Positions 6,254-24,359 are shown, counted from the stretch's first letter. The stretch is 64,000 nucleotides of DNA from an uncultured delta proteobacterium (GCA_963801935.1 CAWDHA010000014.1:6608-70607), one strand, 5' to 3'. The notes: generated by a model from the sequence alone, not told the origin. Program-made: numbers and translations.

Positions 6254-6672
6254 ACCGCCAAGCCTGTTAGGGAGGAGAAAACCGCCGTGCAAATTTTCAC
6301 GGGGGATTTCAGCGCAACCAAGGGTATTCCACCGAGCGGGCTCTGCGGGGTGTTCATCGTGCCGGCGCGATTTAAGTGATCGAGATGAACCATGGCCCCG
6401 TTTGCGAAAGCCTCGCTGCCGGTGCTGCCTGCTTATCGTTACGCGGATAAGCGCGCATTCTAACGAATACATAGGTCCTTGTCTAAGTAATATAATCCTT
6501 ACAGTTGTGCCCAGAATTCCCGGCGCGGTTGGAGCGGCCGCTTGGCGGTTTGCAGCAAGTAGAGGGAAACTTCTTCTTTGCGGGAACCTTTTTGCTGCCA
6601 ACCTAGTTTCAACAGAGTAACGAGCGGCTTTGATATCCGAAACCGCAAAACACAAGAAAGGGAGAAAGCGTG

Positions 6673-6953
6673 ATGAGGAAAATATTCATGGTTTGGGGTT
6701 GCCTGCATTAATCATCCCAAGGGCGCTAGTCGCCGCGCCGGCGAGTTGGGCGCAGGAACAGGGCGGCATGATGAAGGACGACAAGGGCGACATGATGAAA
6801 GATAAAATGAAAGCCGAAAAGAAGGGCCAAGGCGGAACGACCGACGGTAAAATGACGATGGACGAGAAGATGAAGATGGACGAAAAAAGCAATAGCCTGA
6901 TTTTGCAAACAGTGCGATCGGGAACTCGGCACGTCTGGCGAGCCGCAAGCTGA
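6673..6953 (+). CDS. Small secreted Met/Lys/Asp-rich protein (needs a frame correction in a G-run)
   Basis: The ATG at 6673 with GGAGAA upstream gives MRKIFMVWGCLH*. One nt more in GGGG (6695-6698) would give MRKIFMVWGLPALIIPRALVAAPASWA|QEQGGMMKDDKGDMMKDKMKAEKKG...KMTMDEKMKMDEK. The 3' end is uncertain. Confidence 0.35.
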
Positions 6954-7241: not shown

Positions 7242-8441
7242 ATGGAAGAACTTGCAAGAAGCGATGCGGCCAAGGGAAATAGCGGCGTTACGGATTGCGA
7301 GGCGGCGGTGCTTGAGCGTTACGGCAACGCCGCGCAGCAAGTCGAACCGCGTCTTTGCCTGTCCGTGAGTTACAACGCGGCCCTGCTGCAAGTCATACCC
7401 CAGGAAATCATCGAAAAAGACTACGGCTGCGGCGATCCGTCGCGCTACGTCCGCGCCGGCGAGACGGTTCTCGATCTCGGTTCCGGAAGCGGCAAAGCTT
7501 GCTACATCATGGCGCAAATTGTCGGCGCTCAAGGAAAAGTCATCGGCGTGGATTTTAATCCGCCGATGCTCGAGCTTGCGCGCAAGTACCAGAAATCCGT
7601 CGGCGCGAAACTCGGCTATGAAAACGTCGAGTTCCGCCGCGGCAAGATTCAGGACTTGAGAACTGACCTCGAGCTTCTCGGTGGCTATCTCGACGAGCAT
7701 CCGGTGCGCTCGGTTGCGGATTTGCAAGAGCTCGAAAAATACCAAGCCAGGATTCGGCGCGAGCAGCCCCTGGTGGCGGATGACTCGGTGGACGTGATCG
7801 TTTCCAATTGCGTCCTGAATCTGGTCCGTTCTGAGGATAAGAAGCGCCTGTTTAGCGAAATGTATCGGGTTCTCAAGCGCGGTGGCCGAGTCGTGATCTC
7901 GGATATCGTCAGCGACGAGCCGGTGCCCGAACACCTGACTCTGGACGCCAATCTATGGAGCGCCTGCGTTTCAGGAGCGTTTCAGGAAGAGGAGTTTTTG
8001 CGCGCCTTCGAAGAGGCGCAATTCCATGGCATCGAAATCGCGGCGCTTGGCAGCGAGGCCTATCAAACCGTCGAAGGTATCGAATTTCGCGCCATCACAG
8101 TGACCGCTTACAAAGGCAAGCAGGGTCCCTGTATTGAGCGCGATCAGGCGGTGGTTTATCGCGGCCCCTGGAAACAAGTCGTCGATGACGATGGCCATAC
8201 GCTTGAACGCGGCGCGCGCATCGCCGTGTGCGATAAGACGTTCAAGCTCTATTCGCAACCTCCTTATGAAGGGCAGTTTATTTTTGTGCCGCCGCGCCGA
8301 GAAGTCGCCATGGAGAGCGCCGGTCTGTTCGACTGCGCGCGCGATCGCCGGCGCCATCCGCGGGAAACCAAAGGAATGGATTATAAGATTACGACGATTT
8401 CCGAGCCCTCGTGCGGCCCAGATACGAAGTGCTGCGCGTAA
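7242..8441 (+). CDS. arsM: Arsenite S-adenosylmethionine methyltransferase (ArsM-like)
   Basis: SAM motif VLDLGSGSG and cysteines in the ArsM-typical contexts YGCGDP, SNCVLNL and ACVSGA. An additional C-terminal Cys-rich tail (EPSCGPDTKCCA) is present. Confidence 0.8.
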   Translation: MEELARSDAAKGNSGVTDCEAAVLERYGNAAQQVEPRLCLSVSYNAALLQVIPQEIIEKDYGCGDPSRYVRAGETVLDLGSGSGKACYIMAQIVGAQGKVIGVDFNPPMLELARKYQKSVGAKLGYENVEFRRGKIQDLRTDLELLGGYLDEHPVRSVADLQELEKYQARIRREQPLVADDSVDVIVSNCVLNLVRSEDKKRLFSEMYRVLKRGGRVVISDIVSDEPVPEHLTLDANLWSACVSGAFQEEEFLRAFEEAQFHGIEIAALGSEAYQTVEGIEFRAITVTAYKGKQGPCIERDQAVVYRGPWKQVVDDDGHTLERGARIAVCDKTFKLYSQPPYEGQFIFVPPRREVAMESAGLFDCARDRRRHPRETKGMDYKITTISEPSCGPDTKCCA

Positions 8442-8651
8442 ACAGCCAGGCGTGCGTCAACAGGCAATAGCGCACGGCGCATCGAGCAAAGGGCAGAGCG
8501 CCAGAGGCAAAGAGCGAGGGAAGCCGTCGCGAAACGCTTCGCGCCGTGCGCTTTGCGAGTCATTCGAGATGCTGCGCCGGCCTGGGAAAGCGCTCAGCGT
8601 GAGAGCGGTTCTGCGGCGCGCCCATGACGAAAGCCGCTTGCAATCACCCCG

Positions 8652-9629
8652 ATGCAACCGTTTCTAGAAAAACTTCATCTAAACTTTGATGTCCTTAGAC
8701 GGCGCGCGCTCGAAGTGTTGCAGGTCAATATGGGCCGCTACTGCAACTTGGCCTGTGTGCACTGCCACGTCGAGTCCGGCCCGACGCGCAAAGAGATGAT
8801 GAGCCGCGCCAGAGTCGATGCCGTGCTGCGATTTCTTCAGAGCACGCAGATCGCCACTCTCGACATTACCGGCGGCGCGCCCGAGTTGCACCCGAATTTC
8901 GATTACCTGGTCGAGTCAGCCCGGGAATTTGGCCGCCATGTGATGGATCGTTGTAACCTGACGGTGATCTTTGAGCCGGGCAAAGACTATTTGCCGGAGT
9001 TTTTTCGCCGTCACCAGGTCGAACTGGTTTGCTCGCTGCCATGCTATTCGGTGGAGAACGTCGATAAGCAGCGTGGCAAAGGGACGTTCGACGCAAGTAT
9101 TCGCGCCTTAAAGATCCTGAACGGCCAGGGTTACGGCCATCCCGGCAGCTCGCTGCTCCTGAACCTCGTCTATAATCCGGTCGGGCCGCATCTGCCGCCG
9201 GCGCAAGCCGAGCTGGAAGCGGATTACAAGCGCATCCTCAAAGAACAGTTCGGTATCGTTTTTCATCATCTTTTCTGCTTGACCAACATGCCGATCACGC
9301 GCTACGCGACGCACTTGAAGCTGCGCGGCGAGTTGGGTGGCTACTTAAATCTCCTGGAGCAGAACTTCAACGCGGCAACCCTCGATCAAGTGATGTGCCG
9401 TAATCTCATCAGCGTTGGCTGGAACGGCTCTGTGTACGATTGCGATTTCAACCAGATGCTCGATCTGCCGCTGCGTGACGTGGACGGGGGCCGCCTGGAT
9501 ATTGCCTCGCTGACTCTTGATCAGCTCAGGGAGCGCGCCATTACAGTCGCCGATCATTGTTACGCCTGCACGGCGGGCTCGGGTAGCAGCTGCGGCGGCG
9601 CTCTGGTGGCAAAGGAGACGGCGGCGTGA
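8652..9629 (+). CDS. arsS: Arsenosugar-biosynthesis radical SAM protein (ArsS; radical SAM/Cys-rich domain family)
   Basis: CxxxCxxC motif in CNLACVHCH. The C-terminal CYACTAGSGSSCGG is the position that is Sec in some homologs and is Cys here. The gene follows arsM. Confidence 0.8.
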   Translation: MQPFLEKLHLNFDVLRRRALEVLQVNMGRYCNLACVHCHVESGPTRKEMMSRARVDAVLRFLQSTQIATLDITGGAPELHPNFDYLVESAREFGRHVMDRCNLTVIFEPGKDYLPEFFRRHQVELVCSLPCYSVENVDKQRGKGTFDASIRALKILNGQGYGHPGSSLLLNLVYNPVGPHLPPAQAELEADYKRILKEQFGIVFHHLFCLTNMPITRYATHLKLRGELGGYLNLLEQNFNAATLDQVMCRNLISVGWNGSVYDCDFNQMLDLPLRDVDGGRLDIASLTLDQLRERAITVADHCYACTAGSGSSCGGALVAKETAA

Positions 9630-9956
9630 AAAACATTTTAGTTGGATTGCTCGCGGGAACGCTGTTCGTTACGGCAAAGATTCCCGAGCGACCCCGTCAC
9701 CGGTCTTTTCGCTGATAGGAATGACCGACGACCGAGGACTAAGGACGGGAACGAAGATCGACCGGTGACGGCAAACTGACCGACGGTCCCCGGTCTTGCG
9801 TCTCCGGTCTTTTGACAACGCCTTGCGCTTAGCTCGTTGCCGACAGAGTCTTTCGGCGCCGAGAGCTCGGTTGAAGTCACGCTCTGGCATCCAAACACCA
9901 GGTTGAATCATCCAAAGAATCATTAAACACCGCGCCGCTTTGAAAACCGCGCCGGA

Positions 9957-12209
9957 TTGGAGATGAAACCCACTAAAATTCTGCTCGCTGCCTTGCTGGT
10001 TGCCGGCTTGCTGGCGGCTCTCTTCCTCCTGCCCGTGCGCGACTGGTTCAGGCATTTCGAAAGTTCCGTCCAATCGCTTGGCGCGGTCGGTCCGGTGATC
10101 GTGGTTCTGGCTTACATCCTGTGCACAGTTTTCTTTATTCCCGGCAGCGCGCTGACGATCGGGTCGGGCACTTTGTTTGGTTTGGCGACCGGCTTTGTGG
10201 TGGTCTTTCTCGGCGCCAATCTGGGAGCACTGGCGGCGTTTTTACTGGCGCGCACTTTCTTGCGGGAGAGAGTGGCCAACTGGGCCCGAGCTTATCCCAA
10301 ATTCCGCTCGCTGGACCAAGCGATCGGCCGGCAGGGCTTCAAGATGGTTCTATTGACGCGCTTGAGCCCGGTTTTTCCTTTTGTCCTGTTGAATTACTTT
10401 CTCGGCCTGACGGCGGTGCGCACCAGCTCCTACGTTCCGGCAAATTTGATCGGCATGCTGCCGGCAACTTTTCTTTTTGTTTACATCGGCGCCGCGGCGC
10501 GCGATGCTCTGGCGGGCCAGCCCGACGGCGCGGCCGGATTTTACCAAGAGATTCTTAAGTACATCGGACTCGCCGCCACGGTTGCCGTGGTCATGGTCGT
10601 AACGCGCATAGCTCGCAAGGCGTTGCGCGAAGCGGAACAAAATCAACCAGAGAGCGCTACAGAGCCGCGCCTCGATTCAAACCACCGGCCGGCGCCTGTC
10701 GATGAGATGATGCTCCTCGATGATGTCCACGACCGACGATTGGTCGAGAACTGTCATCCGCATGGGTGGCTCAATCCGACGCCGTCAGGAAAGTACAATC
10801 TGCTAGTGATCGGCGGTGGCACTGCCGGCCTGGTGAGCGCGGCGGGCGCGGCGGGGCTGGGTGCCAAAGTGGCCCTTATCGAACGCACTCTCCTGGGAGG
10901 GGATTGTTTGAACGTCGGCTGCGTCCCGTCCAAGGGCGTGATTCGCGCCGCCCGGGCGGTTTTCGATGCGCGCCACGGCGGCGAGTTCGGCGTCCATGCC
11001 AATGGCGCGCGGGGCGCTGATTTCGCCGCGGCCATGGAGAGGATGCGCCGGTTGCGCGCCGGCATCAGCGCCCATGATTCGGCGGAACGCTTCCGCAGGC
11101 TCGGCGTCGACGTTTACATCGGTCATGGAGCTTTTACAGCCTCCGACACCGTCGAAGTCGATGGTAGGCCTTTGGAGTTCGATCGCGCCGTGATTGCTAC
11201 CGGCGCGCGCGCCACGGAGTTGCCAATTCCCGGCCTTAAAGAAAGCGGTTATTACACCAACGAAACGATATTTACCCTAACCGAGTTGCCGCGCCGTCTG
11301 GTCGTCATCGGCGCGGGCCCGATCGGTTGTGAGCTGGCGCAGGCGCTCGGGCGCTTCGGCAGCGAGGTGACGATGATCACCGATGGCGCGGAAATTTTGC
11401 CTAAAGAAGATCGCGATGCGGCTTCAGTGTTGCGCCGCCAGATGGAGTGCGAAGGCGTGACGATCGTCACTCACGCGAAGATTGAAAAGGTCGGCGGCAA
11501 CGGCGCCGGCAAACAGGTCTCAATTGCCGCTGCCGGCAAGATCCGGCAGATCGCTTGCGACGCAATTTTACTTTCCGTGGGTCGCCAGCCGAACCTCGAA
11601 GGGTTGGGTTTGGAGAAAGCCCGGGTTGATTTCACGCGCCGCGGCGTGGTGGTCGATGAAAGGTTACGCACGTCCAACTCGCGCATCTTTGCCGCGGGCG
11701 ATGTCTGTTCGCAGTACAAGTTCACGCACGCCGCCGACGCCATGGCGCGCATCGTCCTCGCCAACGCATTGTTCTTTGCCCGGCGCAAGGTAACCGACCT
11801 GGTGATCCCATGGTGCACCTACACCGATCCCGAAATCGCCCACGTCGGCTACTACGAAAAAAACACCAAGCTTACGGGATATGAACTGGCAACGCTCACC
11901 GAACCCTTCAGTCATGTAGATCGCGCGATTCTCGACGGCGAAGAGGAGGGATTTGCCAGGGTGCACTACGATAAGAAAACCGGCAGGATCTTGGGCGGCA
12001 CCGTGGTGGCGCGCCATGCGGGTGAAATGATCAGTGAACTGACCCTGGCGATGGTGGCGAAACAAACGGTCGGCGCCTTGTCAGCGACGATTCACCCCTA
12101 TCCGACCCAGGCGGAGGTGCTGCGCAAAATCGGCGATGCCTACATGCGCGCAAAGCTGACGCCGACGATAAAAAAAATATTAAAGACTTGGCTGGAGTGG
12201 CGGCGCTGA
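9957..12209 (+). CDS. Fusion of a DedA/TVP38-TMEM64 membrane domain with a class-I FAD pyridine nucleotide-disulfide oxidoreductase (mercuric-reductase-like)
   Basis: About 220 N-terminal aa are multi-TM (…FFIPGSALTIGSGTLFG…LTRLSPVFPF…). Next come GGGTAGL (FAD binding), the redox disulfide GGDCLNVGCVPSK, and the C-terminal IHPYPTQAE. Confidence 0.8.
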   Translation: MEMKPTKILLAALLVAGLLAALFLLPVRDWFRHFESSVQSLGAVGPVIVVLAYILCTVFFIPGSALTIGSGTLFGLATGFVVVFLGANLGALAAFLLARTFLRERVANWARAYPKFRSLDQAIGRQGFKMVLLTRLSPVFPFVLLNYFLGLTAVRTSSYVPANLIGMLPATFLFVYIGAAARDALAGQPDGAAGFYQEILKYIGLAATVAVVMVVTRIARKALREAEQNQPESATEPRLDSNHRPAPVDEMMLLDDVHDRRLVENCHPHGWLNPTPSGKYNLLVIGGGTAGLVSAAGAAGLGAKVALIERTLLGGDCLNVGCVPSKGVIRAARAVFDARHGGEFGVHANGARGADFAAAMERMRRLRAGISAHDSAERFRRLGVDVYIGHGAFTASDTVEVDGRPLEFDRAVIATGARATELPIPGLKESGYYTNETIFTLTELPRRLVVIGAGPIGCELAQALGRFGSEVTMITDGAEILPKEDRDAASVLRRQMECEGVTIVTHAKIEKVGGNGAGKQVSIAAAGKIRQIACDAILLSVGRQPNLEGLGLEKARVDFTRRGVVVDERLRTSNSRIFAAGDVCSQYKFTHAADAMARIVLANALFFARRKVTDLVIPWCTYTDPEIAHVGYYEKNTKLTGYELATLTEPFSHVDRAILDGEEEGFARVHYDKKTGRILGGTVVARHAGEMISELTLAMVAKQTVGALSATIHPYPTQAEVLRKIGDAYMRAKLTPTIKKILKTWLEWRR

Positions 12210-12232
12210 AGTCGAGACGGTAATCGGAGGTT

Positions 12233-13078
12233 TTGATGGAATTCCGTAGCCGGCGGGCTGCTAACTTTTTTGCCGGAGTTCTGCTGCTTGCTCTGTTTGG
12301 CGCGCCGAAAGCAGAGCTCTGGCCGCGCTGGGAGAAGCATGATGGCGCGAGCGTTCAAAAAGTCGATCACACGGCGTGGAATGCATTTCTCAAGAAGCAT
12401 CTGCTCGCGCCGCATGCTTCCGGAGTCAACCGCGTGCGTTATGGGAACGTATCGATAGAGGACCGAAAGGCGCTCAAGAGCTATCTTGCCGAGCTGCAGA
12501 GGGTGGCCATTTCCTCCTATCATCGCGGCGAGCAGAGAGCGTACTGGATCAATCTCTACAATGCCCTCACCGTCGACGTGGTGCTGTCTCATTATCCTGT
12601 CGAGTCGATCCGCGACATCGGCATCTCGCCTGGGCTATTCAACCGCGGTCCCTGGGACGCTAAGCTGATGGTGATCGAGGGTGAAAAGCTTTCGTTGAAC
12701 GACATCGAACATCGTATCTTACGTCCCATCTGGCGCGACCCCCGGCTGCATTACGCGGTAAACTGCGCCAGTCTCGGTTGTCCCAACCTCCAGGCGGAGG
12801 CTTACAGCGCGGAGAACGCCGAAGCGCTGTTGGAAAGAGGCGCGCGCGAGTACATCAACCACCGGCGCGGCTTAACGCTCAAGGAGGGCAAGCTGACGGT
12901 CTCCAGCATCTATGATTGGTTCAAGGAGGATTTTGGCGCCAGCCGCGAGCCGCTCATGCAACACTGGCTAAAGTATGCCGACAAGAGTCTGGCCGAAGTC
13001 TTGAAGAATTATCGCGGCAGATTGAGCCATGCTTATGATTGGAGTCTCAACGGGCCCGAGCAGAAGTTAGAACCGTAA
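12233..13078 (+). CDS. DUF547 domain protein with signal peptide
   Basis: YWINLYNALTV...LSLNDIEHRILRP...DPRLHYAVNCASLGCPNL, with a hydrophobic N-terminal leader. Confidence 0.75.
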   Translation: MMEFRSRRAANFFAGVLLLALFGAPKAELWPRWEKHDGASVQKVDHTAWNAFLKKHLLAPHASGVNRVRYGNVSIEDRKALKSYLAELQRVAISSYHRGEQRAYWINLYNALTVDVVLSHYPVESIRDIGISPGLFNRGPWDAKLMVIEGEKLSLNDIEHRILRPIWRDPRLHYAVNCASLGCPNLQAEAYSAENAEALLERGAREYINHRRGLTLKEGKLTVSSIYDWFKEDFGASREPLMQHWLKYADKSLAEVLKNYRGRLSHAYDWSLNGPEQKLEP

Positions 13079-13099
13079 TGTCTGCGAGGACTCGTTCGC

Positions 13100-13792
13100 G
13101 TGAAGCCGATGCAGCTTTCGATCTCGGTTATTATTCCGGTTCTCAATGAAGAGCTGACGATTGAAGCTCTACTGGAATCACTGCTGCGCCTGAAGCCGGA
13201 CGAAATTCTCGTCGTCGATGGCGGCAGCCTCGATAAGACCCGGGAACTGGCGGCTGCTTTGGGTGTGCGGGTGATCTCGTGCGCGCGTGGCCGGGCGCGC
13301 CAGATGAACGAAGGAGCCAGGTTAGCGCGGGGCGCGGTGCTGCTGTTTCTTCATGCCGATACGCGCTTACCGGAGTCGGCTTTCTTTGACATTCGCGGCG
13401 CCATGCAGAGTCCCAGCAACGTCGGCGGCCGCTTTGACATTGCGCTCGACGGTGCAGGCTGGGTGCTCAAATGGGTCGGCGCCATGATCAGCCTGCGCTC
13501 GCGCTTGAGCGGGGTTGCGACCGGTGATCAAGCGATATTTGTCCGGCGCGAAGTTTTCACCAGGCTCGGCGGTTACCCCGATATCCCGCTGATGGAGGAC
13601 GTGGCGTTGTCGCGGGCGCTCAAACGCGCGGGCAAAGTGGTGCGCTTGAAGAGCCGGGTCATCACCTCGGCGCGGCGCTGGCAAACCGAAGGGGTATGGC
13701 GCACGATCTTCAAGATGTGGGCGCTCAAATTGCTATATCTGCTCGGCGTCTCACCGTTTCGACTGAAGCGCTTTTATGGCGAGCCGCGCTGA
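13100..13792 (+). CDS. GT2-like glycosyltransferase (TIGR04283-type, arsenosugar/rSAM-selenodomain-associated transferase 2)
   Basis: SVIIPVLNEE...VVDGGSLD...LFLHADT, and the context next to a DUF2064 gene. The start may be the ATG at 13109. Confidence 0.7.
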   Translation: MKPMQLSISVIIPVLNEELTIEALLESLLRLKPDEILVVDGGSLDKTRELAAALGVRVISCARGRARQMNEGARLARGAVLLFLHADTRLPESAFFDIRGAMQSPSNVGGRFDIALDGAGWVLKWVGAMISLRSRLSGVATGDQAIFVRREVFTRLGGYPDIPLMEDVALSRALKRAGKVVRLKSRVITSARRWQTEGVWRTIFKMWALKLLYLLGVSPFRLKRFYGEPR

Positions 13793-14459
13793 CGCGCTGG
13801 TGGTAATGACCAAAGCGCCGCTGCCTGGTCAAAGCAAGACCAGGCTGGTGCCGCCGCTGAGCTTCGGAGAGGCGGCGGCGCTGGCGCGCGCGCTGTTGAT
13901 CGATCAACTGGATCACCTCGCAAGTTTTAGCGGCGCCGAGTTATTTGTCGCGTTCGCGCCGCCAGACGCCGCGGCGTTTTTTCAAGCGCTGGTGCCGGCG
14001 CGCTTCGCGATTTTTCCCCAGGAGGGCGAAGACCTGGGAGAACGCATGGGGCAAGCCTTTCAACATCTTTTCGCAAGCGGCTTTGGGAACATCCTGTTGA
14101 TTGGCAGCGACCTGCCGCCGATCGGGCTGCCAACATTGGCTAACGCTTATGCATCGCTTAGCGCCGGCAAGGACGTCGTCCTCGGTGCCGCTGAAGACGG
14201 TGGCTACTATCTGATCGGCATGAGCCATTTAATTATCGATGTCTTTGAAGGGATGCACTGGAGCCGCGCCGACGTGCTGGAGCGAACTTTGGCAAAGATC
14301 AAGCGCGCTGGTTTGAGCTACGAGCTCTTGCCAGCATGCCAGGATATAGACACCCCGGACGATCTCGCTCGCCTCTACTCCAGGCACCAGGCCGAGCCTT
14401 TTCTCTTGAAAAATACCGCGACTCTGTTGCAGGAACTCCGGCAGCGAGGCAAACTGTAA
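13776..14459 (+). CDS. DUF2064 / TIGR04282-type transferase-like protein
   Basis: VVMTKAPLPGQSKTRL... is the typical DUF2064 N-terminus. The gene overlaps the upstream gene by 17 nt. Confidence 0.7.
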   Translation: MASRADALVVMTKAPLPGQSKTRLVPPLSFGEAAALARALLIDQLDHLASFSGAELFVAFAPPDAAAFFQALVPARFAIFPQEGEDLGERMGQAFQHLFASGFGNILLIGSDLPPIGLPTLANAYASLSAGKDVVLGAAEDGGYYLIGMSHLIIDVFEGMHWSRADVLERTLAKIKRAGLSYELLPACQDIDTPDDLARLYSRHQAEPFLLKNTATLLQELRQRGKL

Positions 14460-14466
14460 GTAGAGT

Positions 14467-14630
14467 CTAGCAGCCCGTGGTGAAAGTGTGGCGGCGCGCC
14501 GAGACGGGCGAGGCGCCCTGATGGCAAGGCGCGACGCGCGAGAATATCGGGATATTTGAGGGGAGGAGCAACGCACAATGGGGATCGATCGCCCGTCGAA
14601 TGCAGTCAGACTTTCACCACGGGCTGCTAG
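14467..14630 (-). repeat. F1 element, copy 2 (inverted orientation)
   Basis: CTAGCAGCCCGTGGTGAAAGTGTGG...CAGACTTTCACCACGGGCTGCTAG. The reverse complement aligns with copies 1 and 3. It starts 8 nt after the upstream stop codon. Confidence 0.85.
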
Positions 14631-14723
14631 CTCATCACATTAGTCAAAAGTCTTTTGCTGCCGGTTGTGAAATGGTCCGTCCAAAGAGCAGCGCTCTCCC
14701 TGGACGCTGGGGAGAATTTTTCG

Positions 14724-16784
14724 ATGCAAGAAACCCGAGACAAGATCGACGAGCTATGCGTCAACGCTATCCGCATGCTTTCCGTGGATGCCGTGGAAAA
14801 GGCGAAATCAGGCCACCCCGGCGCTCCCATGGGTCTCGCGCCCGTCGCCTTTGTGCTGTGGACGCGCTTTCTTAAACACAATCCGAAAAATTCCGGGTGG
14901 CCGGATCGCGATCGCTTCGTTCTGTCCGCCGGACACGCCTCCATGCTGCTTTACAGCATGCTGCACCTTACCGGCTACCAAGACCTTTCTCTCGATCAGA
15001 TCAAACAGTTTCGCCAGTGGGGAAGCCGCACGCCCGGGCATCCGGAACGCGAGCTTGCCGCCGGCATCGAGACGACGACGGGCCCGCTCGGCCAGGGTTT
15101 CGGTAACGGCGTCGGCATGGCCATTGCTGAGGCGTTTCTGGCGGCTCGCTACAATCGCCCGGGATTCGCGATCATTGATCATTTCACCTACTCGATCGTC
15201 AGCGACGGCGATCTGATGGAGGGCGTGGCGGCGGAGGCCGCGAGCCTGGCGGGACATCTGAAGCTCGGCAAATTGATTTATTTTTACGATAACAATCGCA
15301 TCTCGCTTGCCGCGTCCACCGATCTGACCTTCACCGAGGACGTCGCCAAGAGATTCGACGCCTATGGTTGGCATACCCAATCAGTGGATGACGGCAACGA
15401 TTTGAATGCCATCGATCGCGCGCTCAGTCTTGCGCAGAGCGAGACTCGGCGGCCGTCGATTATTCTGGTGCGCACGCACATCGGCTACGGTTCGCCCGGC
15501 AAGCAAGACAGTTTCGAGGCGCACGGCGCTCCCCTGGGCGAAGAAGAAGCCAAGAAAACCAAACAGAAATTGGGCTGGACGTCCGAACCTTTTCATATTC
15601 CGGAAGATGCGCTGGCGCGCTTTCGCGCATCAATTGGCCGAGGTGAAAAAGCCGAGAAGGGATGGCACGAAAAGTTTTCCGCTTACAAGGGAAAATTTCC
15701 GGAATTGGCACAAGAACTTGAAGGAGTGCTCCGCGGCGAGCTGCCGCAAGGCTGGGACGCGGCGATTCCCGAGTTTGACGCCGACCCCAAAGGTTTGGCC
15801 ACACGCGCTGCGTCGGGGAAAATTTTGAATGCCATCGCGGCCAAGCTGCCGACGTTGATCGGCGGTTCGGCGGATCTGAATCCCTCCACTTTCACGGCGC
15901 TTACCAAGCTCGGTGATTTCGAGAGCCCTGAAAGGGACTTTCAGAACAGCCAAGGAATGTCCGGCGGCGGCGCCAATTACGCCGGCCGCAATTTGCATTT
16001 TGGCGTGCGCGAGCACGCCATGGGGGCTGTGCTCAATGGCATGGCGGCGCACGGCGGTGTCCACCCGTTTGGTTCAACCTTCCTGATCTTTTCAGATTAC
16101 TTGCGCCCATCGATGCGCCTGGCCGCGCTCATGGAAATCGGTGTTATTTATGTTTTTACCCATGACAGTATCGGCGTGGGTGAAGACGGTCCGACGCACC
16201 AACCGATCGAACAGCTCGCCGCTTTACGCGCCATCCCAAGGCTCGTCGTCATACGACCGGGGGACGCCAACGAGACCGCGGTGGCATGGCGCGTCGCGAT
16301 TGAAAGCAAAGACCGTCCGGTGGCATTGGCGTTGTCGCGGCAAAATCTGCCGACTCTGGACCGCAGCCAATTTACCTCCGCCAAGGGAGTGGCGCGCGGC
16401 GCTTATGTGTTGGCCGATGTCGACGGCGCGGCTCCCGATGTTATTCTGATCGGCACCGGCTCCGAACTCTCGTTGGTGGTTGGCGCCCGGGAAAAATTAT
16501 TGGAGCGAAACATCAAAGCGCGGGTCGTTTCGATGCCGAGCTGGGAGCTTTTCGATGCCCAGCCGCAGGAATATCGCGAATACGTTTTACCGCCTGCAAT
16601 CCGTCCGAGGCTGGCCGTTGAGGCGGCGCTGCCGCTCGGTTGGCATCGTTACGTCGGTGACCAGGGCGACGTCATCGGTGTCGAGCGCTTCGGCGCCTCG
16701 GCTCCGGGAAACATCGTGCTGGAGAAGTTCGGCTTCACGGTGGAGCGCGTGGTAGAACGCGCCCTGGCGCTGGTGGAGAAATAA
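14724..16784 (+). CDS. tkt: Transketolase
   Basis: SGHPGAPMG and [16 protein letters not shown] motifs. The ATG at 14724 ([11 protein letters not shown]...) is preferred over the ORF-track start at 14655. Confidence 0.9.
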
Positions 16785-16786
16785 AA

Positions 16787-17245
16787 ATGCGGCTGGTGAT
16801 CGGCGCCGACCACGCCGGTTTTGCGCTCAAGCAACAACTCGCGACTCATCTACGCGAAGCTGGTCACGAAGTCATCGATATAGGTACGACAAGCAGCGAG
16901 CCGGTGGACTACCCGGATTTTGCCGAAGCCGTGGGCACAAGCTTGTGTAATAATCAGGCAGTTCGCGGCGTGCTCGTCTGCGGCAGCGGCGTCGGCGCCT
17001 CGGTTGCGGCTAATAAGATTCCTGGAATTCGCGCCGGCCTCTGCCACGACACGTATTCGGCGCATCAGGGGGTCGAGCACGACGACATGAACGTGCTCGT
17101 GCTCGGCGCGCGCGTGATCGGCCTCGAGCTTGCGAAGGAACTGGCCACGAGCTTCATTGCGGCCCGGTTCACCGGCGAAGCGCGCCATGCCCGGCGCCTT
17201 GAGAAAATAAAATCCCTGGAAGCGCGTTATCGGAATGGCAAATAA
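16787..17245 (+). CDS. rpiB: Ribose-5-phosphate isomerase B
   Basis: [15 protein letters not shown]...[13 protein letters not shown]; 152 aa. Confidence 0.9.
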
Positions 17246-17257
17246 TAGAGAGGGATC

Positions 17258-20014
17258 ATGGCTCAATTGAAAGAACTACTGGCTGAGCGCCAGTCGGTGT
17301 GGCTCGACACTATCAGTCGCGGTTTGTTACAGAGCGGCGAGCTTAAACGCATGGTCGAGGAAGACGGCATACGCGGCGTTACCAGCAATCCGACAATCTT
17401 CGAGAAGGCGATCGGCGGCAGCGCGGATTACGACGATGCGCTCCGAGAGCTGCTGGCACAAGACCCGCACACGACCACCGGTGAGCTTTACGAGCCGCTC
17501 GCGATCGCGGACATCCAAGCGGCAGCGGACGTCTTGCGGCCGGTATACGACGAAACCGGCGGCGCTGACGGTTATGTCAGCTTAGAAGTATCGCCGCATC
17601 TGGCGCACGATACCGAGGGAACGATCGGCGAAGCCAGACGGCTGCGCAGCGCCGTGGCGCGGCAGAATCTCATGATCAAAGTGCCGGCGACAGCCCAGGG
17701 CATTCCCGCCATTGAGCAGCTCATCGCCGAAGGCGTCAGCGTCAACATCACCCTGATGTTTTCCATGGCGCACTACGAGGCGGTGGCGCGCGCCTATATC
17801 AAAGGTCTGGAGCGCGCCGCCGAGCCCGGCAAAGTTTCGTCGGTCGCGTCATTTTTCGTCAGCCGCGTGGACACCCTGGTGGACCGCGCTCTGGAAAATC
17901 TTGGCACGCCGCAAGCCAAGGCGTTGCAAGGCAAGATTGCCGTCGCCAATTCTAAATTGGTCTACCAGCGCTTCGAAGAGATTTTTCATGGCGAAGGCTT
18001 CGTCGCGCTGCGCCAACGGGGCGGGCGCGTGCAGCGTCCGCTGTGGGCGAGCACCGGCACCAAGAATCAGGCTTATTCCGATGTTCTTTACGTCGAACAT
18101 TTAATCGGTGGCGAAACCGTCAATACCGTGCCGCTGGAAACCTTGCGCGCTTTTCAAGATCACGGCCGGGTGGCGGGTCCAACCATCAAAGAAAACCTGC
18201 AGGAGGCGGCGGCCCTGCTCGAGCGTCTGCAATCGCTGGGCATCGATCTCAATCAAATCGCCGAGAAGCTGCAGCAGGATGGTGTCAAGGCGTTCGCCGA
18301 TTCTTTTGACCAGCTAATGGCCGCGCTCGAAAGAAAGCGCAGCGCTCTCAAGCCCGGCGAGCTGAACCAGCAGGAGCTCCATCTGGGCAAATTTCAAAAC
18401 CGGGTGAATCGGCGGCTGAAAGACTGGGAGGCGCAGCAAATCGGCGAGCGCATATGGAACAAAGATCCGTCGGTGTGGTCGGCAGAGCCCCAAGCCGAGC
18501 TGAGCGACCGCCTGGGTTGGCTCGAGTTGCCGGAGACAATGACGGCACAAGTGGACTCGCTGGCCGCGTGCGCTGAAAAAGCCAGAGCCGATGGCATGCG
18601 CCACGTTGTCCTCCTCGGCATGGGCGGATCGAGTCTCGCGCCTGAAGTGTTCCAGCAAACCTTCGGTAACCAGGAAGGCTATCCGAAACTGATGGTGCTT
18701 GACAGCACCCATCCCGGCGCCGTGCGCGCCGTCGAGTCACAGGTTGATCTCGGGCGCACGCTTTTTGTCGTCTCGAGCAAGTCCGGCACGACCACCGAGA
18801 CCAATTCCTTCTTCTTTTACTTTTGGGACAAGCTAAAGCAATTTAAAGAAGCGCCGGGTGGCCATTTCATCGCCATCACCGATCCCGGAACGCCGCTCGA
18901 AGCGCTGGCGCGCGAGCGCAAATTCCGCGCCACGTTTGCCGCGCCTGAGGAGGTTGGCGGGCGTTACTCCGCGCTCACGGTTTTTGGCCTGGTGCCGGCG
19001 GCTCTGATCGGCGTCGCAATCGGCGAGATTCTAACGCGCGCGCGCTGGATGAGCGAAGCCTGCGGCCCGGCAAAAACAGCAGCGAAAAATCCCGGGCTGA
19101 TCCTCGGCGCCGCGCTCGGCGAACTTGCGCTCGCCAAACGTGACAAAGTGACCTTCGTGTGTTCGCCGTCGCTCGCCGCGTTTCCTGCGTGGGCTGAACA
19201 GCTCATCGCCGAAAGCACCGGCAAGGATCGCAAAGGCATCGTGCCGGTAGCTACCGAGGATAGCGGCGCACCGGAGAAATACGCTGAGGACCGCTTGTTT
19301 GTCTACTTGAGACTTGAGGGCGACGCGAACCATGATTTGGACCGCCAGACAGCGGCGCTGCGCGCCAACGATCATCCGCTGGTGCGCATCGAGCTTAAGG
19401 ATAAATTGGATGTAGCTCAGGAATTTTTCCGCTGGGAATTCGCTGTCGCTGCCGCCGGCGCAGCGCTCGGAATTCATCCGTTCAATCAACCCGATGTCCA
19501 GTTGGCTAAAGATCTGGCGAAGAAAGCCATGGGCGACGCGGCTAAGAAGAGCGCTGCTAAACTGAAAGAAGAGATTTCGGCAACTGACCCGGAGCGCTTG
19601 CGCGACTCCTTGAATCAATGGATGAGCGGGCGCAAGCCGCGCGACTATCTGGTCATCCAGGCCTATGTCGCGCCGCTAGCGGAAAACCGCGCAGCTGTGC
19701 AAAACATTTCTAATGCGCTACGCGAGCGTCTCGGTATCGCTGCGACATTTGGCTTTGGTCCGCGCTTTCTCCATTCCACCGGACAACTCCACAAGGGCGG
19801 GCCGAACTCCGCGCTGGTGTTACAGATCGTTGACCAGCCGGCGGAAAATTTGGCGGTGCCGGAGACGAACTACACATTCGACTCACTGATCGAGGCGCAG
19901 GCGATCGGCGATTTGACCGCGCTCAAGCAACGGCGCCGGCGCGCGCTTCGAGTCAACCTCGGCAGCGATACATCGGCTGGTTTGGAACGCTTGGCGGCAG
20001 CTTTGCGCGACTAG
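17258..20014 (+). CDS. Bifunctional transaldolase / glucose-6-phosphate isomerase
   Basis: The N-terminal half carries SNPTIFEKA and MIKVPAT (transaldolase). The C-terminal half carries the SIS/PGI motifs [14 protein letters not shown] and [11 protein letters not shown]. Confidence 0.85.
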
Positions 20015-20043
20015 TTCGGCTTGGCCTGCGGGAGGAAAAAACT

Positions 20044-20940
20044 ATGGAACTCGGCATAATCGGTTTGGGCCGCATGGGCGCGAACATGACGGAACGTCTG
20101 CTCCTCGGCGGTCACCAGGTCGTGAGCTACGACCGTAGTCCCGAGGCGATTCAGCGGGTCGTCGATAAAGGCGCTAGCGGCGCGCACTCGCTGGCGGACT
20201 TTGTAAAGCAACTGAGCCCGCCGCGCGCTGTGTGGCTGATGGTGCCCTCGGGTAACCCGGTCGATCAGACCATCGAGCAGTTGCTGCCCAACTTGGTAAA
20301 GGGCGATGTCATCATCGATGGCGGCAATTCCTATTACAAAGATTCGATCCGTCGCGCGGAAAAGCTCAAAGGCCAGGGCATTTATTTCGTTGATGCCGGT
20401 ACCAGCGGCGGGATCTGGGGCTTGAAAGTCGGCTACTGCATGATGGTGGGTGGGGAAAAAGAAGTGGTGGCGCGGCTTGAGCCGATTTTTACAACGCTGG
20501 CTCCACCGGACGGTTATCTGCACGCCGGCCCCAGCGGCGCCGGCCATTTCGTCAAGATGATCCATAACGGCATCGAGTACGGCATGATGCAAGCCTACGG
20601 CGAAGGCTTCGAGTTGCTCAAAGCTTCGCAATTCGATGTCGACCTCGGCAAGGTTGCGCATCTGTGGAACCAGGGCAGCGTCGTCCGCTCGTGGCTCCTC
20701 GAACTCTGCGAAAGCGCGTTTACCAAAGACCCGCGGCTTGCAACCATCAAAGATTACGTCGAGGATTCCGGCGAGGGCCGCTGGACCGTCCAGGAAGCGG
20801 TAGAGAATTGCGTGCCTGTGCCGGTGCTGATGGCGTCGTTATTCGCCCGTTTCGCTTCGCGCCAGGAGCATTCGTTCTCGGCGAAAGTGGTCGCCGCGCT
20901 GCGTAACGAGTTTGGCGGGCACGCGGTCCGGAAGGAGTAG
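20044..20940 (+). CDS. gnd: 6-phosphogluconate dehydrogenase, decarboxylating (short form)
   Basis: MELGIIGLGRMGANM...HNGIEYGMMQAYGEG; 298 aa. Confidence 0.85.
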   Translation: MELGIIGLGRMGANMTERLLLGGHQVVSYDRSPEAIQRVVDKGASGAHSLADFVKQLSPPRAVWLMVPSGNPVDQTIEQLLPNLVKGDVIIDGGNSYYKDSIRRAEKLKGQGIYFVDAGTSGGIWGLKVGYCMMVGGEKEVVARLEPIFTTLAPPDGYLHAGPSGAGHFVKMIHNGIEYGMMQAYGEGFELLKASQFDVDLGKVAHLWNQGSVVRSWLLELCESAFTKDPRLATIKDYVEDSGEGRWTVQEAVENCVPVPVLMASLFARFASRQEHSFSAKVVAALRNEFGGHAVRKE

Positions 20941-20944
20941 GGCG

Positions 20945-22486
20945 ATGTACGGCGATCCGCTGGCCGCCGCGGCAACCGGCCCAAGCCAGGCACGGCGGCC
21001 GCACGCGGCCGTGCTGTCAATCTTCGGCGCGTCAGGGGATCTCACCAAGCGCAAGCTCATTCCCGCGCTTTACAACCTCGCCCGGGAGAATCGTTTACCG
21101 GAAAGCTTTGCCGTGGTCGGTTACGCGCGCAGCGAAATGACCCACGAAATTTTTCGCGACAAGATGCGCGATGCGGTGCGTGAGTTTTCGCGCACTGGCT
21201 TGGACGAGTCAGTGTGGGAAAGATTCGCCTCTACGCTCTATTTTATTCCCGGCAGTTATGATGAGCCGCAGGGCTACCAGGCGATGAAGTCGTTTATCGA
21301 CGACTTTGAGCGCGGCAGCGGCGTCCTGCCGGCGCGGATCTTCTATCTGGCGATCCCGCCGGATCTTTACGCCCCCGTGGTGCGCAATATCTCTGCCACC
21401 GGCCTCGCGCCGCGCGAAAGTGACGGTGATGCCAGAACCCGGGTGGTCATTGAAAAACCGTTCGGCACCGACTTGGGCAGCGCGCGCGAGCTCAACCGCA
21501 CGGTCCATGAAGTGCTCGACGAAAAACAAGTCTATCGAATCGATCATTATCTCGGCAAAGAGACGGTGCAGAATATTATGGTTTTTCGCTTTGCCAACTC
21601 GGTCTTCGAGCCGATCTGGAACCGAAGCTATATCGATCACGTGCAGATTACCGCGGCAGAAACCGTCGGCGTGGAAAGCCGCGGCGGCTACTACGAAAAG
21701 TCGGGTGTGGTGCGCGACATGTTCCAAAATCACCTGCTGCAGTTGCTGTGCTTGACGGCGATGGAACCGCCTGTCGGTTTTTCCGCGGATTCGGTGCGCG
21801 ATGAGAAAACCAAATTGCTGAGAGCAGTTCGTCCCGTGCCCTTCGATGAAGTCGGCGCGGCGGCGATACGCGGCCACTACGCACCGGGGCAAATCGACGG
21901 CAAAGAAGTTATCGGCTACAGGGAAGAGCCGGGTGTCGCCGGAGATTCAGCGACGGCGACGTACGCGGCGATCAAATACTTCATCGATAGCTGGCGCTGG
22001 GAGGGAGTGCCGTTTTACTTGCGTTCAGGCAAGCGGCTGGCCAAGCGCGTGACCGAGATCGCCATCCAGTTCAAACGCCCGCCCATGCTGATGTTCCGGG
22101 CGTGCCCGGTGGATGAAGTCAATCCCAACGTGCTGGTGCTGCGTATCCAGCCGGATGAGGGTATCGCATTAACCTTCGAAGTGAAGCCGCCCGGCCCGGC
22201 TATCTGCGTTAGCCCTATGAGCCTTGATTTTAGATACGACGAGGCCTTCGGCAGCAGCCCGCCGGAGGCTTACGAAACTCTCCTGGAAGATTGCATCGAG
22301 GGCGATTCGACTCTGTTCACGCGCAGCGATTGGGTGGAGTTGGCATGGTCACTCGTGGATCCCATTATTGTCGAGTGGGAGAACGATAAGCCGGTCGATT
22401 TACCGACCTACCCGGCGGGAAGCTGGGGACCACAAAAAGCCGATGAGTTCATGCAGCGCGACCGGCGGCGCTGGCGCCAGCCGTAG
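20945..22486 (+). CDS. zwf: Glucose-6-phosphate 1-dehydrogenase
   Basis: IFGASGDLTKRKL and RIDHYLGKE signatures. The ATG at 20945 lies just after the gnd stop, with GGAAGGAG upstream. Confidence 0.9.
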   Translation: MYGDPLAAAATGPSQARRPHAAVLSIFGASGDLTKRKLIPALYNLARENRLPESFAVVGYARSEMTHEIFRDKMRDAVREFSRTGLDESVWERFASTLYFIPGSYDEPQGYQAMKSFIDDFERGSGVLPARIFYLAIPPDLYAPVVRNISATGLAPRESDGDARTRVVIEKPFGTDLGSARELNRTVHEVLDEKQVYRIDHYLGKETVQNIMVFRFANSVFEPIWNRSYIDHVQITAAETVGVESRGGYYEKSGVVRDMFQNHLLQLLCLTAMEPPVGFSADSVRDEKTKLLRAVRPVPFDEVGAAAIRGHYAPGQIDGKEVIGYREEPGVAGDSATATYAAIKYFIDSWRWEGVPFYLRSGKRLAKRVTEIAIQFKRPPMLMFRACPVDEVNPNVLVLRIQPDEGIALTFEVKPPGPAICVSPMSLDFRYDEAFGSSPPEAYETLLEDCIEGDSTLFTRSDWVELAWSLVDPIIVEWENDKPVDLPTYPAGSWGPQKADEFMQRDRRRWRQP

Positions 22487-22619
22487 TACCGAAAACGAAT
22501 GGCATCAAGGGCAGGGAGTAAAGACGAAAAGACGAGATCCGGCACGCTTTGCGCTTGCGCTTAGCACTTTGCGAGTAACCGAGCGAAGCGGCTCGCTGCT
22601 CGATCTGCTTCGGTGAATA

Positions 22620-23620
22620 ATGCAGGCTAGCAACTTGATCCTGGCGGGAGACATCGGCGGAACGAAGACCCACATCGCGCTCTTCGCGCTCAACGGCGAC
22701 AAGCTCAAAGTCGAGGTCGAGAAAACTTTTGCGAGTAAGCAGTATTCCGGACTCGAATCTGTCTTGCAGGAATTTTTGGCAGCCCGCGACTACCGAGTCG
22801 GCAGCGCTTGTTTCGGCGTGGCCGGACCGGTCGTCGATGCCTCGGTCAAAACTCCTAATCTGCCGTGGTTCATCGACGGTGGGCAACTCGCGAAAGCGCT
22901 GAACCTACCATCTGTGGCTTTGCTGAACGATCTCGAAGCCGCCGCTCTGGGCATCTTTACTCTTGAGCCTCACGAGTTTCTTCTCTCAACCCGGGCAACG
23001 CTCGGCGGCCGGCCAACAAAGCGCTGATTGCCGCCGGTACCGGTCTGGGTGAAGCTCTGCTCTACGATGATGGCCGCCAATACCATGCGAGCGCGTCGGA
23101 AGGGGGGCACGGCGACTTTGCGCCGCGCGACGATGGCGAAATCGAGTTGCTACGCTACCTGATGCGCAAGTTCGGCCACGTAAGTTACGAGCGGGTGGTT
23201 TCCGGTCCCGGCATTGCGAACATCTATGAATTTCTCTGCGCCAGCGGCCGCTATGTCGAGCCGCCGGATTTTAAAGAAAAACTCGCGGCCAGCGCCGATC
23301 CGAGCGCGTTAATTTCTCAAGCCGCATTGGCCGGAGAACTTGAGATCTGCGTTAAAGCACTCGATCTGTTTGCGTCGATCTATGGCGCGGAGGCCGGCAA
23401 CCTTGCGCTCCGCGCCAAGGCGATCGCCGGCATCTATATCGGCGGCGGCATCGCGCCAAAGATACAGAAAAAACTCAACGACGGCTCGTTCATGCGCGCG
23501 TTTGTCGAGAAGGGCCGCTACCAAGAGTTTGTCTCGGCCATCCCGGTTTATCTCGTCTTGAACGAAAAAACCGCGCTCCAGGGGGCGGCTTACCACGCCG
23601 CGTTTCGTTCCCATGGCTGA
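22620..23620 (+). pseudogene. glk: Glucokinase, frame-broken by a 1-nt indel near 22975-22990
   Basis: The N-terminal part LAGDIGGTKTH... is in frame 0 and stops at 23025-23027. Homology continues in another frame (…LNPGNARRPANKALIAAGTGLGEA… then ORF 23147..23620). Confidence 0.75.
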
Positions 23621-24359
23621 GCGCGAAATCGCCATCTACCGTGATCTTGAAGAGCTCAGCCGAGATGCGGCTGAAAAGTTTATTGGCCTGGCCGAGCGGG
23701 CGATCCGAGATTCCGGACGCTTCAGCGTGGCGCTTTCCGGCGGCTCGACGCCGCAGACTCTTTACCAGCTTTTGGCCGAGCCGGCTTATTCGGAGCGATT
23801 GCCGTGGCAGCGCGTCCATTTTTTTTGGGGTGATGAACGCGCCGTGCCGCCGGATCATCCGGAGAGCAATTATGGCATGGCGCGAGCGTTGCTGCTGTCA
23901 AAAATTCCTTGCCCGGATGAGAATATCCATCGTATGGCCGGAGAAAAAGAACCAGAGCTTGCCGCTGCCGAGTACCAGAATACTTTGCAAGTTTTTTTTG
24001 GTCTTGCACCGGGTGCATGGCCGCGCTTGGACCTGATGCTTATGGGCATCGGCGAAGATGGCCACACGGTTTCGCTCTTTCCCGATAACGATGCGCTCGA
24101 AAATCGCCAGAATTTGGTTGTGGCACCCTATGTGAAGACCTTGAACTCCTACCGCTTGACCTTGACCTTACCGCTGATCAATCACGCCGCGAATATCTGG
24201 TTTCTGGTGGCGGGGGCGAGCAAAGCGGCCGTCTTGGGCCAAATACTGAAAGCCGACGGCGCTGCCAGCAAAATCCCCGCCGCGAGAGTCGATCCAATAA
24301 GTGGACATTTGGTGTGGTTGATTACGCAGGATGCTGCCGCCGGTTCGCCGTCCCGTTAA
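23613..24359 (+). CDS. pgl: 6-phosphogluconolactonase
   Basis: VALSGGSTP and FFWGDERAVP motifs. The gene overlaps the glk end by 8 nt. Confidence 0.85.
   Translation: MAEREIAIYRDLEELSRDAAEKFIGLAERAIRDSGRFSVALSGGSTPQTLYQLLAEPAYSERLPWQRVHFFWGDERAVPPDHPESNYGMARALLLSKIPCPDENIHRMAGEKEPELAAAEYQNTLQVFFGLAPGAWPRLDLMLMGIGEDGHTVSLFPDNDALENRQNLVVAPYVKTLNSYRLTLTLPLINHAANIWFLVAGASKAAVLGQILKADGAASKIPAARVDPISGHLVWLITQDAAAGSPSR

Follow-up and report, generated by a model that had tools for sequence, protein, structure and literature searches.

The window analysed here is a 64,000-nt stretch of DNA from an uncultured delta proteobacterium (GCA_963801935.1, CAWDHA010000014.1:6608-70607). Its positions 7242–14459 carry six co-directional genes that an initial annotation, made from the sequence alone, described as a complete arsenosugar-type cluster. 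Open reading frames (ORFs) on the + strand were found at exactly the coordinates claimed there. The first encodes a 399-residue methyltransferase of a BgArsM-like subfamily (MT; 7242..8441) and, after a spacer of 210 nt (8442..8651), is followed by the gene for ArsS, a 325-residue radical SAM enzyme in its cysteine form (8652..9629). A second spacer of 327 nt (9630..9956) precedes genes for a 750-residue fusion of a DedA/VTT domain to an FAD/NAD(P)H disulfide reductase (9957..12209), a 281-residue DUF547 protein (12233..13078), a 230-residue GT2-like (GT-A) transferase of family TIGR04283 (GT283; 13100..13792) and a 227-residue CofC-like protein of family TIGR04282/DUF2064, which has a nucleotidyltransferase fold (T282; 13776..14459). 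Between the last two genes there is a 17-nt overlap, which recurs in a related contig (L045). All of the motifs quoted initially (VLDLGSGSG, YGCGDP, SNCVLNL and ACVSGA in MT; CNLACVHCH and CTAGSGSSCGG in ArsS) are present. The best named relatives of the host's proteins belong to Candidatus Binatia, and the GC content of the cluster does not stand out from that of the rest of the genome.

The window proteins were scored against NCBIfam and Pfam with curated cut-offs applied. Five of the six genes lie above them, and MT falls below every ArsM cut-off. The radical SAM protein was identified as ArsS by its score of 441.4 bits on TIGR04167 (equivalog cut-off 300). It contains a Radical_SAM domain and a C-terminal DUF3641 domain (PF12345, 183.5 bits against 24.9), and has both the CX3CX2C radical SAM motif (CNLACVHC) and the C-terminal CTAGSGSSCGG. 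A sequence search of the PDB with ArsS gave no match. The cyanobacterial enzyme adds the 5'-deoxyadenosyl group of S-adenosylmethionine (SAM) to trivalent dimethylated arsenic, DMAs(III), giving 5'-deoxy-5'-dimethylarsinoyl-adenosine (DDMAA; PMC13598754).

The labels first given to the other four proteins all pass their cut-offs. GT283 scores 275.6 bits on TIGR04283 (cut-off 182) and also passes PF00535. T282 scores 189.6 bits on TIGR04282 (cut-off 134) and 110 bits on PF09837, and it aligns over its full length with a functionally unassigned structural-genomics entry, PDB 3CGX ('putative nucleotide-diphospho-sugar transferase', E = 7.5e-32). NCBIfam names both families 'arsenosugar biosynthesis glycosyltransferase', so the association is not new; the names derive only from co-occurrence, and the families were earlier called rSAM/selenodomain-associated transferases. 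A second GT283-like gene lies unlinked in the host genome (C33:93466-94119); it is 37% identical to the window copy and, at 165 bits, scores slightly below the cut-off of 182.

The N-terminal half of the fusion protein passes PF09335 (VTT/DedA; 88.9 bits against 33.9), and hydropathy places about six hydrophobic segments within residues 3–220. The flavoprotein half scores 751.8 bits on NF004991 (cut-off 620) and contains the redox pair CLNVGC; MerA and lipoamide dehydrogenases came out as its best relatives in the PDB. Assignment as MerA was rejected, as the score on TIGR02053 is 372 bits against a cut-off of 454 and the C terminus (...LKTWLEWRR) has no Cys pair. The presence of CLNVGC, the absence of the MerA C-terminal cysteines and the score below the MerA cut-off identify a disulfide reductase rather than a mercuric reductase. 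The DUF547 protein (PF04784, 90.4 bits against 27) begins with a hydrophobic helix or signal-like segment, and its motifs NCASxGCP and EHRILRP are invariant in a 23-sequence alignment. An AlphaFold model of this protein (predicted local distance difference test score, pLDDT, 76.6; predicted template-modelling score, pTM, 0.79) matched no PDB fold (best E = 1.5) and thus provides no functional lead.

MT has the features expected of an As(III) SAM methyltransferase, namely the glycine-rich SAM-binding motif VLDLGSGSG and three core cysteines (C63, C190 and C242), which align with the catalytic C72, C174 and C224 of CmArsM (PDB 4FR0/4KW7). Its best model is arsinothricin ArsM, NF040538, with 355.9 bits over one stretch (residues 36–334) against a cut-off of 500. 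Scores on PRK11873 (196 bits, cut-off 263) and on arsenosugar ArsM, NF038099 (137.2 bits, cut-off 400), are also too low. The enzyme is ArsM-like, as first annotated, but not of the cyanobacterial arsenosugar type. Compared with CmArsM, the two halves of the fold are separated by an insert of 36 residues. A putative fourth cysteine, C39, is located 24 residues ahead of C63, at a position where relatives show LCCP, and has no direct alignment to C44 of CmArsM. The spacings of Cys 39/63/190/242 (24/127/52) are those of Cys30/54/181/233 in BgArsM (PMC8552651). The subfamily also possesses a conserved Cys-rich C-terminal extension (GPCIE, AVCDKT, FDC, RHPRETKG) that ends in Cys-Cys. Close homologues are named at NCBI only as 'methyltransferase domain-containing protein', and in one genome (G137) a member of the subfamily is fused to ArsS within a single 689-residue ORF (L010:8246-10315, + strand). 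Judged by these sequence features, MT is a distinct and uncurated BgArsM-like (arsinothricin-type) subfamily that is able to be fused to ArsS. At the locus of the fusion, a small exported rhodanese-like ORF is found just upstream.

Co-occurrence was profiled across 151 evenly sampled genomes of a single phylum, that of the host. ArsS scores above its cut-off in 52 of these, GT283 in 62, T282 in 68, DUF547 in 26 and the NF004991 reductase in 19; the MT type of the window is present in just four. T282 accompanies ArsS in 48 of the 52 ArsS genomes (p = 1e-18) and GT283 does so in 45 (p = 5e-17), and the companions as a group give values from 1e-6 to 1e-18, all from Fisher tests that are not corrected for phylogeny. 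The two transferases are found together in 59 genomes, and T282 is present in every genome that has DUF547 (26/26) or the reductase (19/19). The initial annotation had treated the genes as one set, and ArsS and its companions do co-occur strongly.

Neighbourhoods were compared by retrieving 40 loci, calling ORFs ourselves and mapping the six window proteins onto them. In about 25 of the fetched loci, drawn from many families, ArsS adjoins GT283, T282, DedA and the reductase in an order and orientation that vary. The extra partner found most constantly is DedA, which is either a free protein or joined to the reductase. T282 and GT283 are fused into one protein in several genomes, and this fusion and that of the methyltransferase to ArsS provide independent support for the linkage. 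Co-occurrence and neighbourhood both show a genuine linkage between ArsS and its four companions. Two thiol-redox proteins, an exported MsrA-MsrB fusion (three loci) and a CMD protein that is AhpD-like and has a CxxC motif (four loci), are recurrent neighbours of ArsS or of T282/GT283. Examples of the minor neighbours, which also include a fatty-acid-hydroxylase-family membrane protein (three loci) and an MTAP homologue (one locus), are found at L030:10131-10475, L017:10629-11432, L031:6077-7198 and L033:8165-8986.

Four metagenome contigs from different samples encode proteins about 77–82% identical to those of the window. All four have the RF2 gene followed by MT-ArsS-DedA/reductase-DUF547-GT283-T282 and then by tkt-rpiB (with tal/pgi where the contig reaches that far), the one variation being an extra GH15 gene ahead of tkt in L047. 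Within the lineage of the window, then, the compact arrangement of the six genes is stable. The ArsS most similar to that of the window (85% identity), on the contig of P0002 (JGI sample 3300067032), is preceded by MT and followed by a PHO4-family phosphate transporter, not by DedA-reductase. The PHO4 family may also carry arsenate.

We read the six genes as a cluster for the biosynthesis of organoarsenicals, of arsenosugar type, and give this reading a probability of about 0.65. The description as a complete arsenosugar cluster holds insofar as the genes are centred on ArsS and of arsenosugar type; that the set is complete, and what it makes, we infer. The closest known system is the ArsM/ArsS arsenosugar pathway known from the cyanobacterium Synechocystis sp. 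PCC 6803 (cited in PMC8552651 from Xue et al., 2019); the window likewise has an ArsM-family methyltransferase adjacent to an ArsS of TIGR04167. In a control genome, Synechococcus elongatus, ArsS, TIGR04283, TIGR04282 and NF004991 are all above cut-off, as they are in the window, whereas DUF547 is absent. The window departs from the cyanobacterial pathway in its BgArsM-like methyltransferase, its DUF547 gene, the contiguity of all six genes and its host, a non-photosynthetic, heterotrophic soil bacterium of the Binatia.

In the pathway that we propose, the ArsM-family enzyme, with three core cysteines and a putative fourth, would methylate trivalent arsenic and ArsS would adenosylate DMAs(III) to DDMAA; homology and published biochemistry support both steps. 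For DDMAA to be turned into a beta-ribofuranoside arsenosugar, its adenine would then have to be removed and an aglycone added. One candidate for the first part of this conversion is an MTAP-type phosphorylase, encoded elsewhere in the genome, that would yield the alpha-1-phosphate (arsenoribose-1-phosphate). Fold, chemistry and linkage suggest that the CofC/MobA-like T282 could activate this compound with a nucleotide, forming a nucleoside diphosphate (NDP)-sugar, and that the GT-A enzyme GT283 could act as an inverting transferase that passes the sugar on to glycerol or a lipid, giving the beta-linked riboside that characterises arsenosugars. The DedA domain, from its fold and linkage, may handle a membrane-bound product or precursor. 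The near-constant presence of DedA, together with a gene for a fatty-acid-hydroxylase-family membrane protein (FA_hydroxylase) that lies beside T282/GT283 in three loci, suggests a membrane-linked product or a lipid substrate. The NAD(P)H-dependent flavoprotein reductase would keep catalytic thiols or the arsenical reduced, perhaps with the Cys-pair protein DUF547 and using NADPH from the adjacent pentose-phosphate operon; its candidate substrates are oxidised thiols of MT or ArsS, a pentavalent arsenical and DUF547 itself.

A more ambitious version of this pathway, which we regard as tentative and rather unlikely in its entirety, would make the six genes and the NADPH-producing pentose-phosphate operon next to them sufficient for non-photosynthetic soil bacteria to turn arsenite into a membrane arsenosugar lipid. 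T282 would then be the missing nucleotidyltransferase for 5-deoxy-5-dimethylarsinoyl-ribose-1-phosphate and GT283 an inverting beta-riboside transferase acting onto a glycerolipid; DedA would flip the lipid across the membrane, and the DedA-fused flavoreductase would pair with the exported DUF547 in thiol-redox chemistry at the membrane, holding the arsenical in its trivalent state. If true, this would give four orphan families their first functions.

Several observations weigh against the arsenosugar reading. MT is clearly a member of the ArsM family by its sequence, yet it lies under all curated ArsM cut-offs, and it is like the arsinothricin type, for which the radical SAM reaction comes first. 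What we propose for T282, GT283, DedA, the reductase and DUF547 is drawn from fold and linkage only, and we know of no product established for a non-cyanobacterial cluster. Next to the cluster we saw neither arsR nor arsC nor acr3. Only 20 of the 52 ArsS genomes have DUF547 and 17 have the NF004991 reductase, which makes both optional. T282 and/or GT283 occur without ArsS in 21 of the 151 genomes. In other Binatia the genes are scattered over the chromosome in four family representatives, only one of which (G143) keeps ArsS and GT283 adjacent. The p values given above, being uncorrected for shared ancestry, belong on the same side.

The resemblance of MT to the arsinothricin enzyme raises an alternative in which the order of the first two steps is reversed. 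ArsS would act first, creating the C-As bond with arsenite or methylarsenite as its substrate, and the BgArsM-like enzyme would then methylate the adenosyl-arsenical, so that the intermediate, and perhaps the product, would differ from those of the cyanobacterial scheme. In Burkholderia gladioli the radical SAM enzyme ArsL acts first and BgArsM then methylates what it has made (PMC8552651), and the window, like arsQML, pairs a BgArsM-like methyltransferase with a radical SAM enzyme that forms a C-As bond. The preference of MT for the arsinothricin model over the arsenosugar one (356 against 137 bits) and the shared insert and Cys spacing point the same way, and fusion of the methyltransferase to ArsS fits substrate channelling in either order. 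However, the substrate in the published reaction of ArsS is DMAs(III), the score of the window's ArsS is well over the TIGR04167 equivalog cut-off, and according to PMC8552651 BgArsM is a typical ArsM, able to accept inorganic As(III) as well. The likeness to arsQML is partial: the partner in the window is ArsS, which transfers 5'-deoxyadenosyl, rather than ArsL, which transfers 3-amino-3-carboxypropyl; there is no ArsQ permease; and MT is under the NF040538 cut-off and has the extra Cys-rich C-terminal tail. We consider the reversed order unlikely.

The 21 genomes that have T282 and/or GT283 and lack ArsS indicate that the transferases, not ArsS, are the hub of the gene set, and that the companions are not specific to ArsS. 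They also bear on the possibility that the window holds two neighbouring modules, with MT and ArsS producing DDMAA or a simple derivative and the other four genes forming an envelope glycolipid or thiol-redox system that has no arsenic substrate. One genome (G091) does have DUF547, DedA-reductase, T282 and GT283 without any ArsS, and in the window long spacers part MT, ArsS and the remaining genes; in related contigs, however, these spacers are down to some 60–100 nt. Moreover, at least 10 of the 21 genomes contain ORFs of 615–1072 residues that fuse another radical SAM domain to an ArsM-type methyltransferase. Examples are L043:7059-10040 (- strand), L041:7899-9746 (- strand) and ORFs in G139, G150, G141, G089, G010, G032 and G018. 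Often they lie directly beside a T282-GT283 fusion, and no NCBIfam model scores above its cut-off on them. In G073 an MbdU-like Cys-rich domain is attached as well, and the gene adjoins T282-GT283 and DedA; a similar ORF of 1085 residues is found on contig 72 of G083, a genome that has ArsS. These fusions (G073, G139, G150 and contig 72 of G083) keep the same two transferases and DedA as the window. They differ in that their radical SAM part, at about 45–70 bits on TIGR04167, is not ArsS, and in that the methyltransferase and ArsS of the window are separate genes. Thus, where ArsS is missing, the transferases still travel with radical SAM and arsenic methyltransferase chemistry. Given that, and given that all of the DUF547 and reductase genomes have T282 and most have ArsS, we find a division into two unrelated modules quite unlikely.

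Selenocysteine (Sec) is a recurrent feature of the gene set. The Sec form of ArsS has TGA at the last Cys of CTAGSG(F/S)(T/S)[U/C]GG and was found in about 17 of the 52 ArsS genomes, and the window has Cys where these relatives carry TGA, as first annotated. All five Binatia genomes sampled have the Cys form, which marks it as a class-wide trait of the lineage and not an oddity of the host genome. The accompanying statement that the host genome uses Sec was not confirmed, as tRNA-Sec, SelA, SelB and SelD were all missing from the assembly (3.9 Mb in 37 contigs, with 21 tRNAs); at 61% completeness this absence proves nothing. A homologue of the NF004991 reductase with an in-frame TGA (G136:C44:98986-100491) may be a selenoprotein form. 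It is very improbable that the true substrate is sulfur or a metalloid or chalcogen other than arsenic (Se, Sb or Te): the set is rich in selenoproteins (Sec forms of ArsS, NCBIfam models of ArsM-selenoprotein fusions and the TGA-containing reductase) and a link to selenite uptake has been reported for one DedA protein, but the biochemistry of ArsS and ArsM is known only with arsenic, and Sec is equally well explained by tight binding of As(III) to selenols.

The genes downstream may have a functional connection with the cluster. Pentose-phosphate genes span 14655–24359 of the window, beginning with the transketolase ORF (14655..16784, + strand), the first gene of the adjacent operon, and in the window's lineage tkt-rpiB-tal/pgi directly follows the cluster. 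In three other families of the phylum, zwf-pgl adjoins the ArsS gene set (L012:6823-11775, L019:13005-15410 and L023:4751-7011). The genes flank ArsS as zwf-pgl in G065 and G066, and in G067 (L012) tkt-rpiB-zwf-pgl lies between ArsS and a T282-GT283 fusion. One possible reason for this adjacency is that these genes supply the flavoreductase with NADPH; another is a connection with sugar-phosphate metabolism. Of about 29 ArsS loci in the phylum, only that of G058 has an MTAP homologue within the cluster, and the host genome has a single, unlinked MTAP. MTAP was therefore rejected as a member of the cluster and retained as a plausible gene acting from elsewhere.

Arsenosugars and arsenosugar lipids dominate the arsenic of marine food and also occur in soils. 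The cluster type is already annotated publicly but biochemically unexplored, and the window adds another instance. In the literature searched, no paper characterises the four companions, as the initial annotation had maintained, and none links DUF547 with DUF2064 or arsenosugars with a glycosyltransferase and arsM. The companions are thus candidates for later steps of the arsenosugar pathway. Because the cluster type is recognised in annotation, the gain is one of prioritisation rather than discovery, and the comparative data sharpen the priorities: T282 and GT283 form the hub, DedA is a near-constant companion and the methyltransferase belongs to a distinct subfamily. With all candidate genes on one 7.2-kb stretch from an abundant soil lineage, the locus is a convenient construct for heterologous expression.

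The two spacers have the lengths first reported, but they are not filled with repeats. Neither contains tandem repeats, has other copies in the genome or matches Rfam, and the local repeats are few and only 9–15 nt long. Spacer 1, for which no function was detected, has one perfect 12-nt inverted repeat. Spacer 2 has a perfect 12-nt inverted repeat (CCGTCACCGGTC/GACCGGTGACGG) and a 15-nt motif (CGTCxCCGGTCTTTT) that occurs two to three times. Folding is no better than that of shuffled sequences (z = -0.67 for spacer 1 and -0.58 for spacer 2), and neither aligns with the relative contig L045. In the four related contigs the spacers measure 59–188 nt (spacer 1) and 79–177 nt (spacer 2). A regulatory RNA or repeat element was rejected for both, since the results for Rfam, tandem repeats, genomic copies, folding and conservation were all negative. 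A promoter scan gave no promoter-like sites, and terminator-like sites were at chance level. The proposed division into three transcription units consequently lost its footing, as the spacers are neither repeat-rich, structured nor conserved; being also shorter in relatives, they are evidence neither for nor against separate transcription units.

At the downstream edge of the cluster, between T282 and the transketolase gene and outside the pathway, is a dispersed repeat that resembles a miniature inverted-repeat transposable element (14467..14630, about 165 nt, with 29-nt terminal inverted repeats). Dozens of copies with 86–93% identity are present across the contigs of the genome. Upstream, a gap of about 990 nt separates prfB from the cluster, most of it taken up by a small exported ORF of 107 residues (6630–6953), which is rich in Met, Lys and Asp and has no Pfam match, and by the GC-rich hairpin that follows it. 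The corresponding gap is 40–200 nt in L045, L047 and L048, and L049 has other genes at this position.

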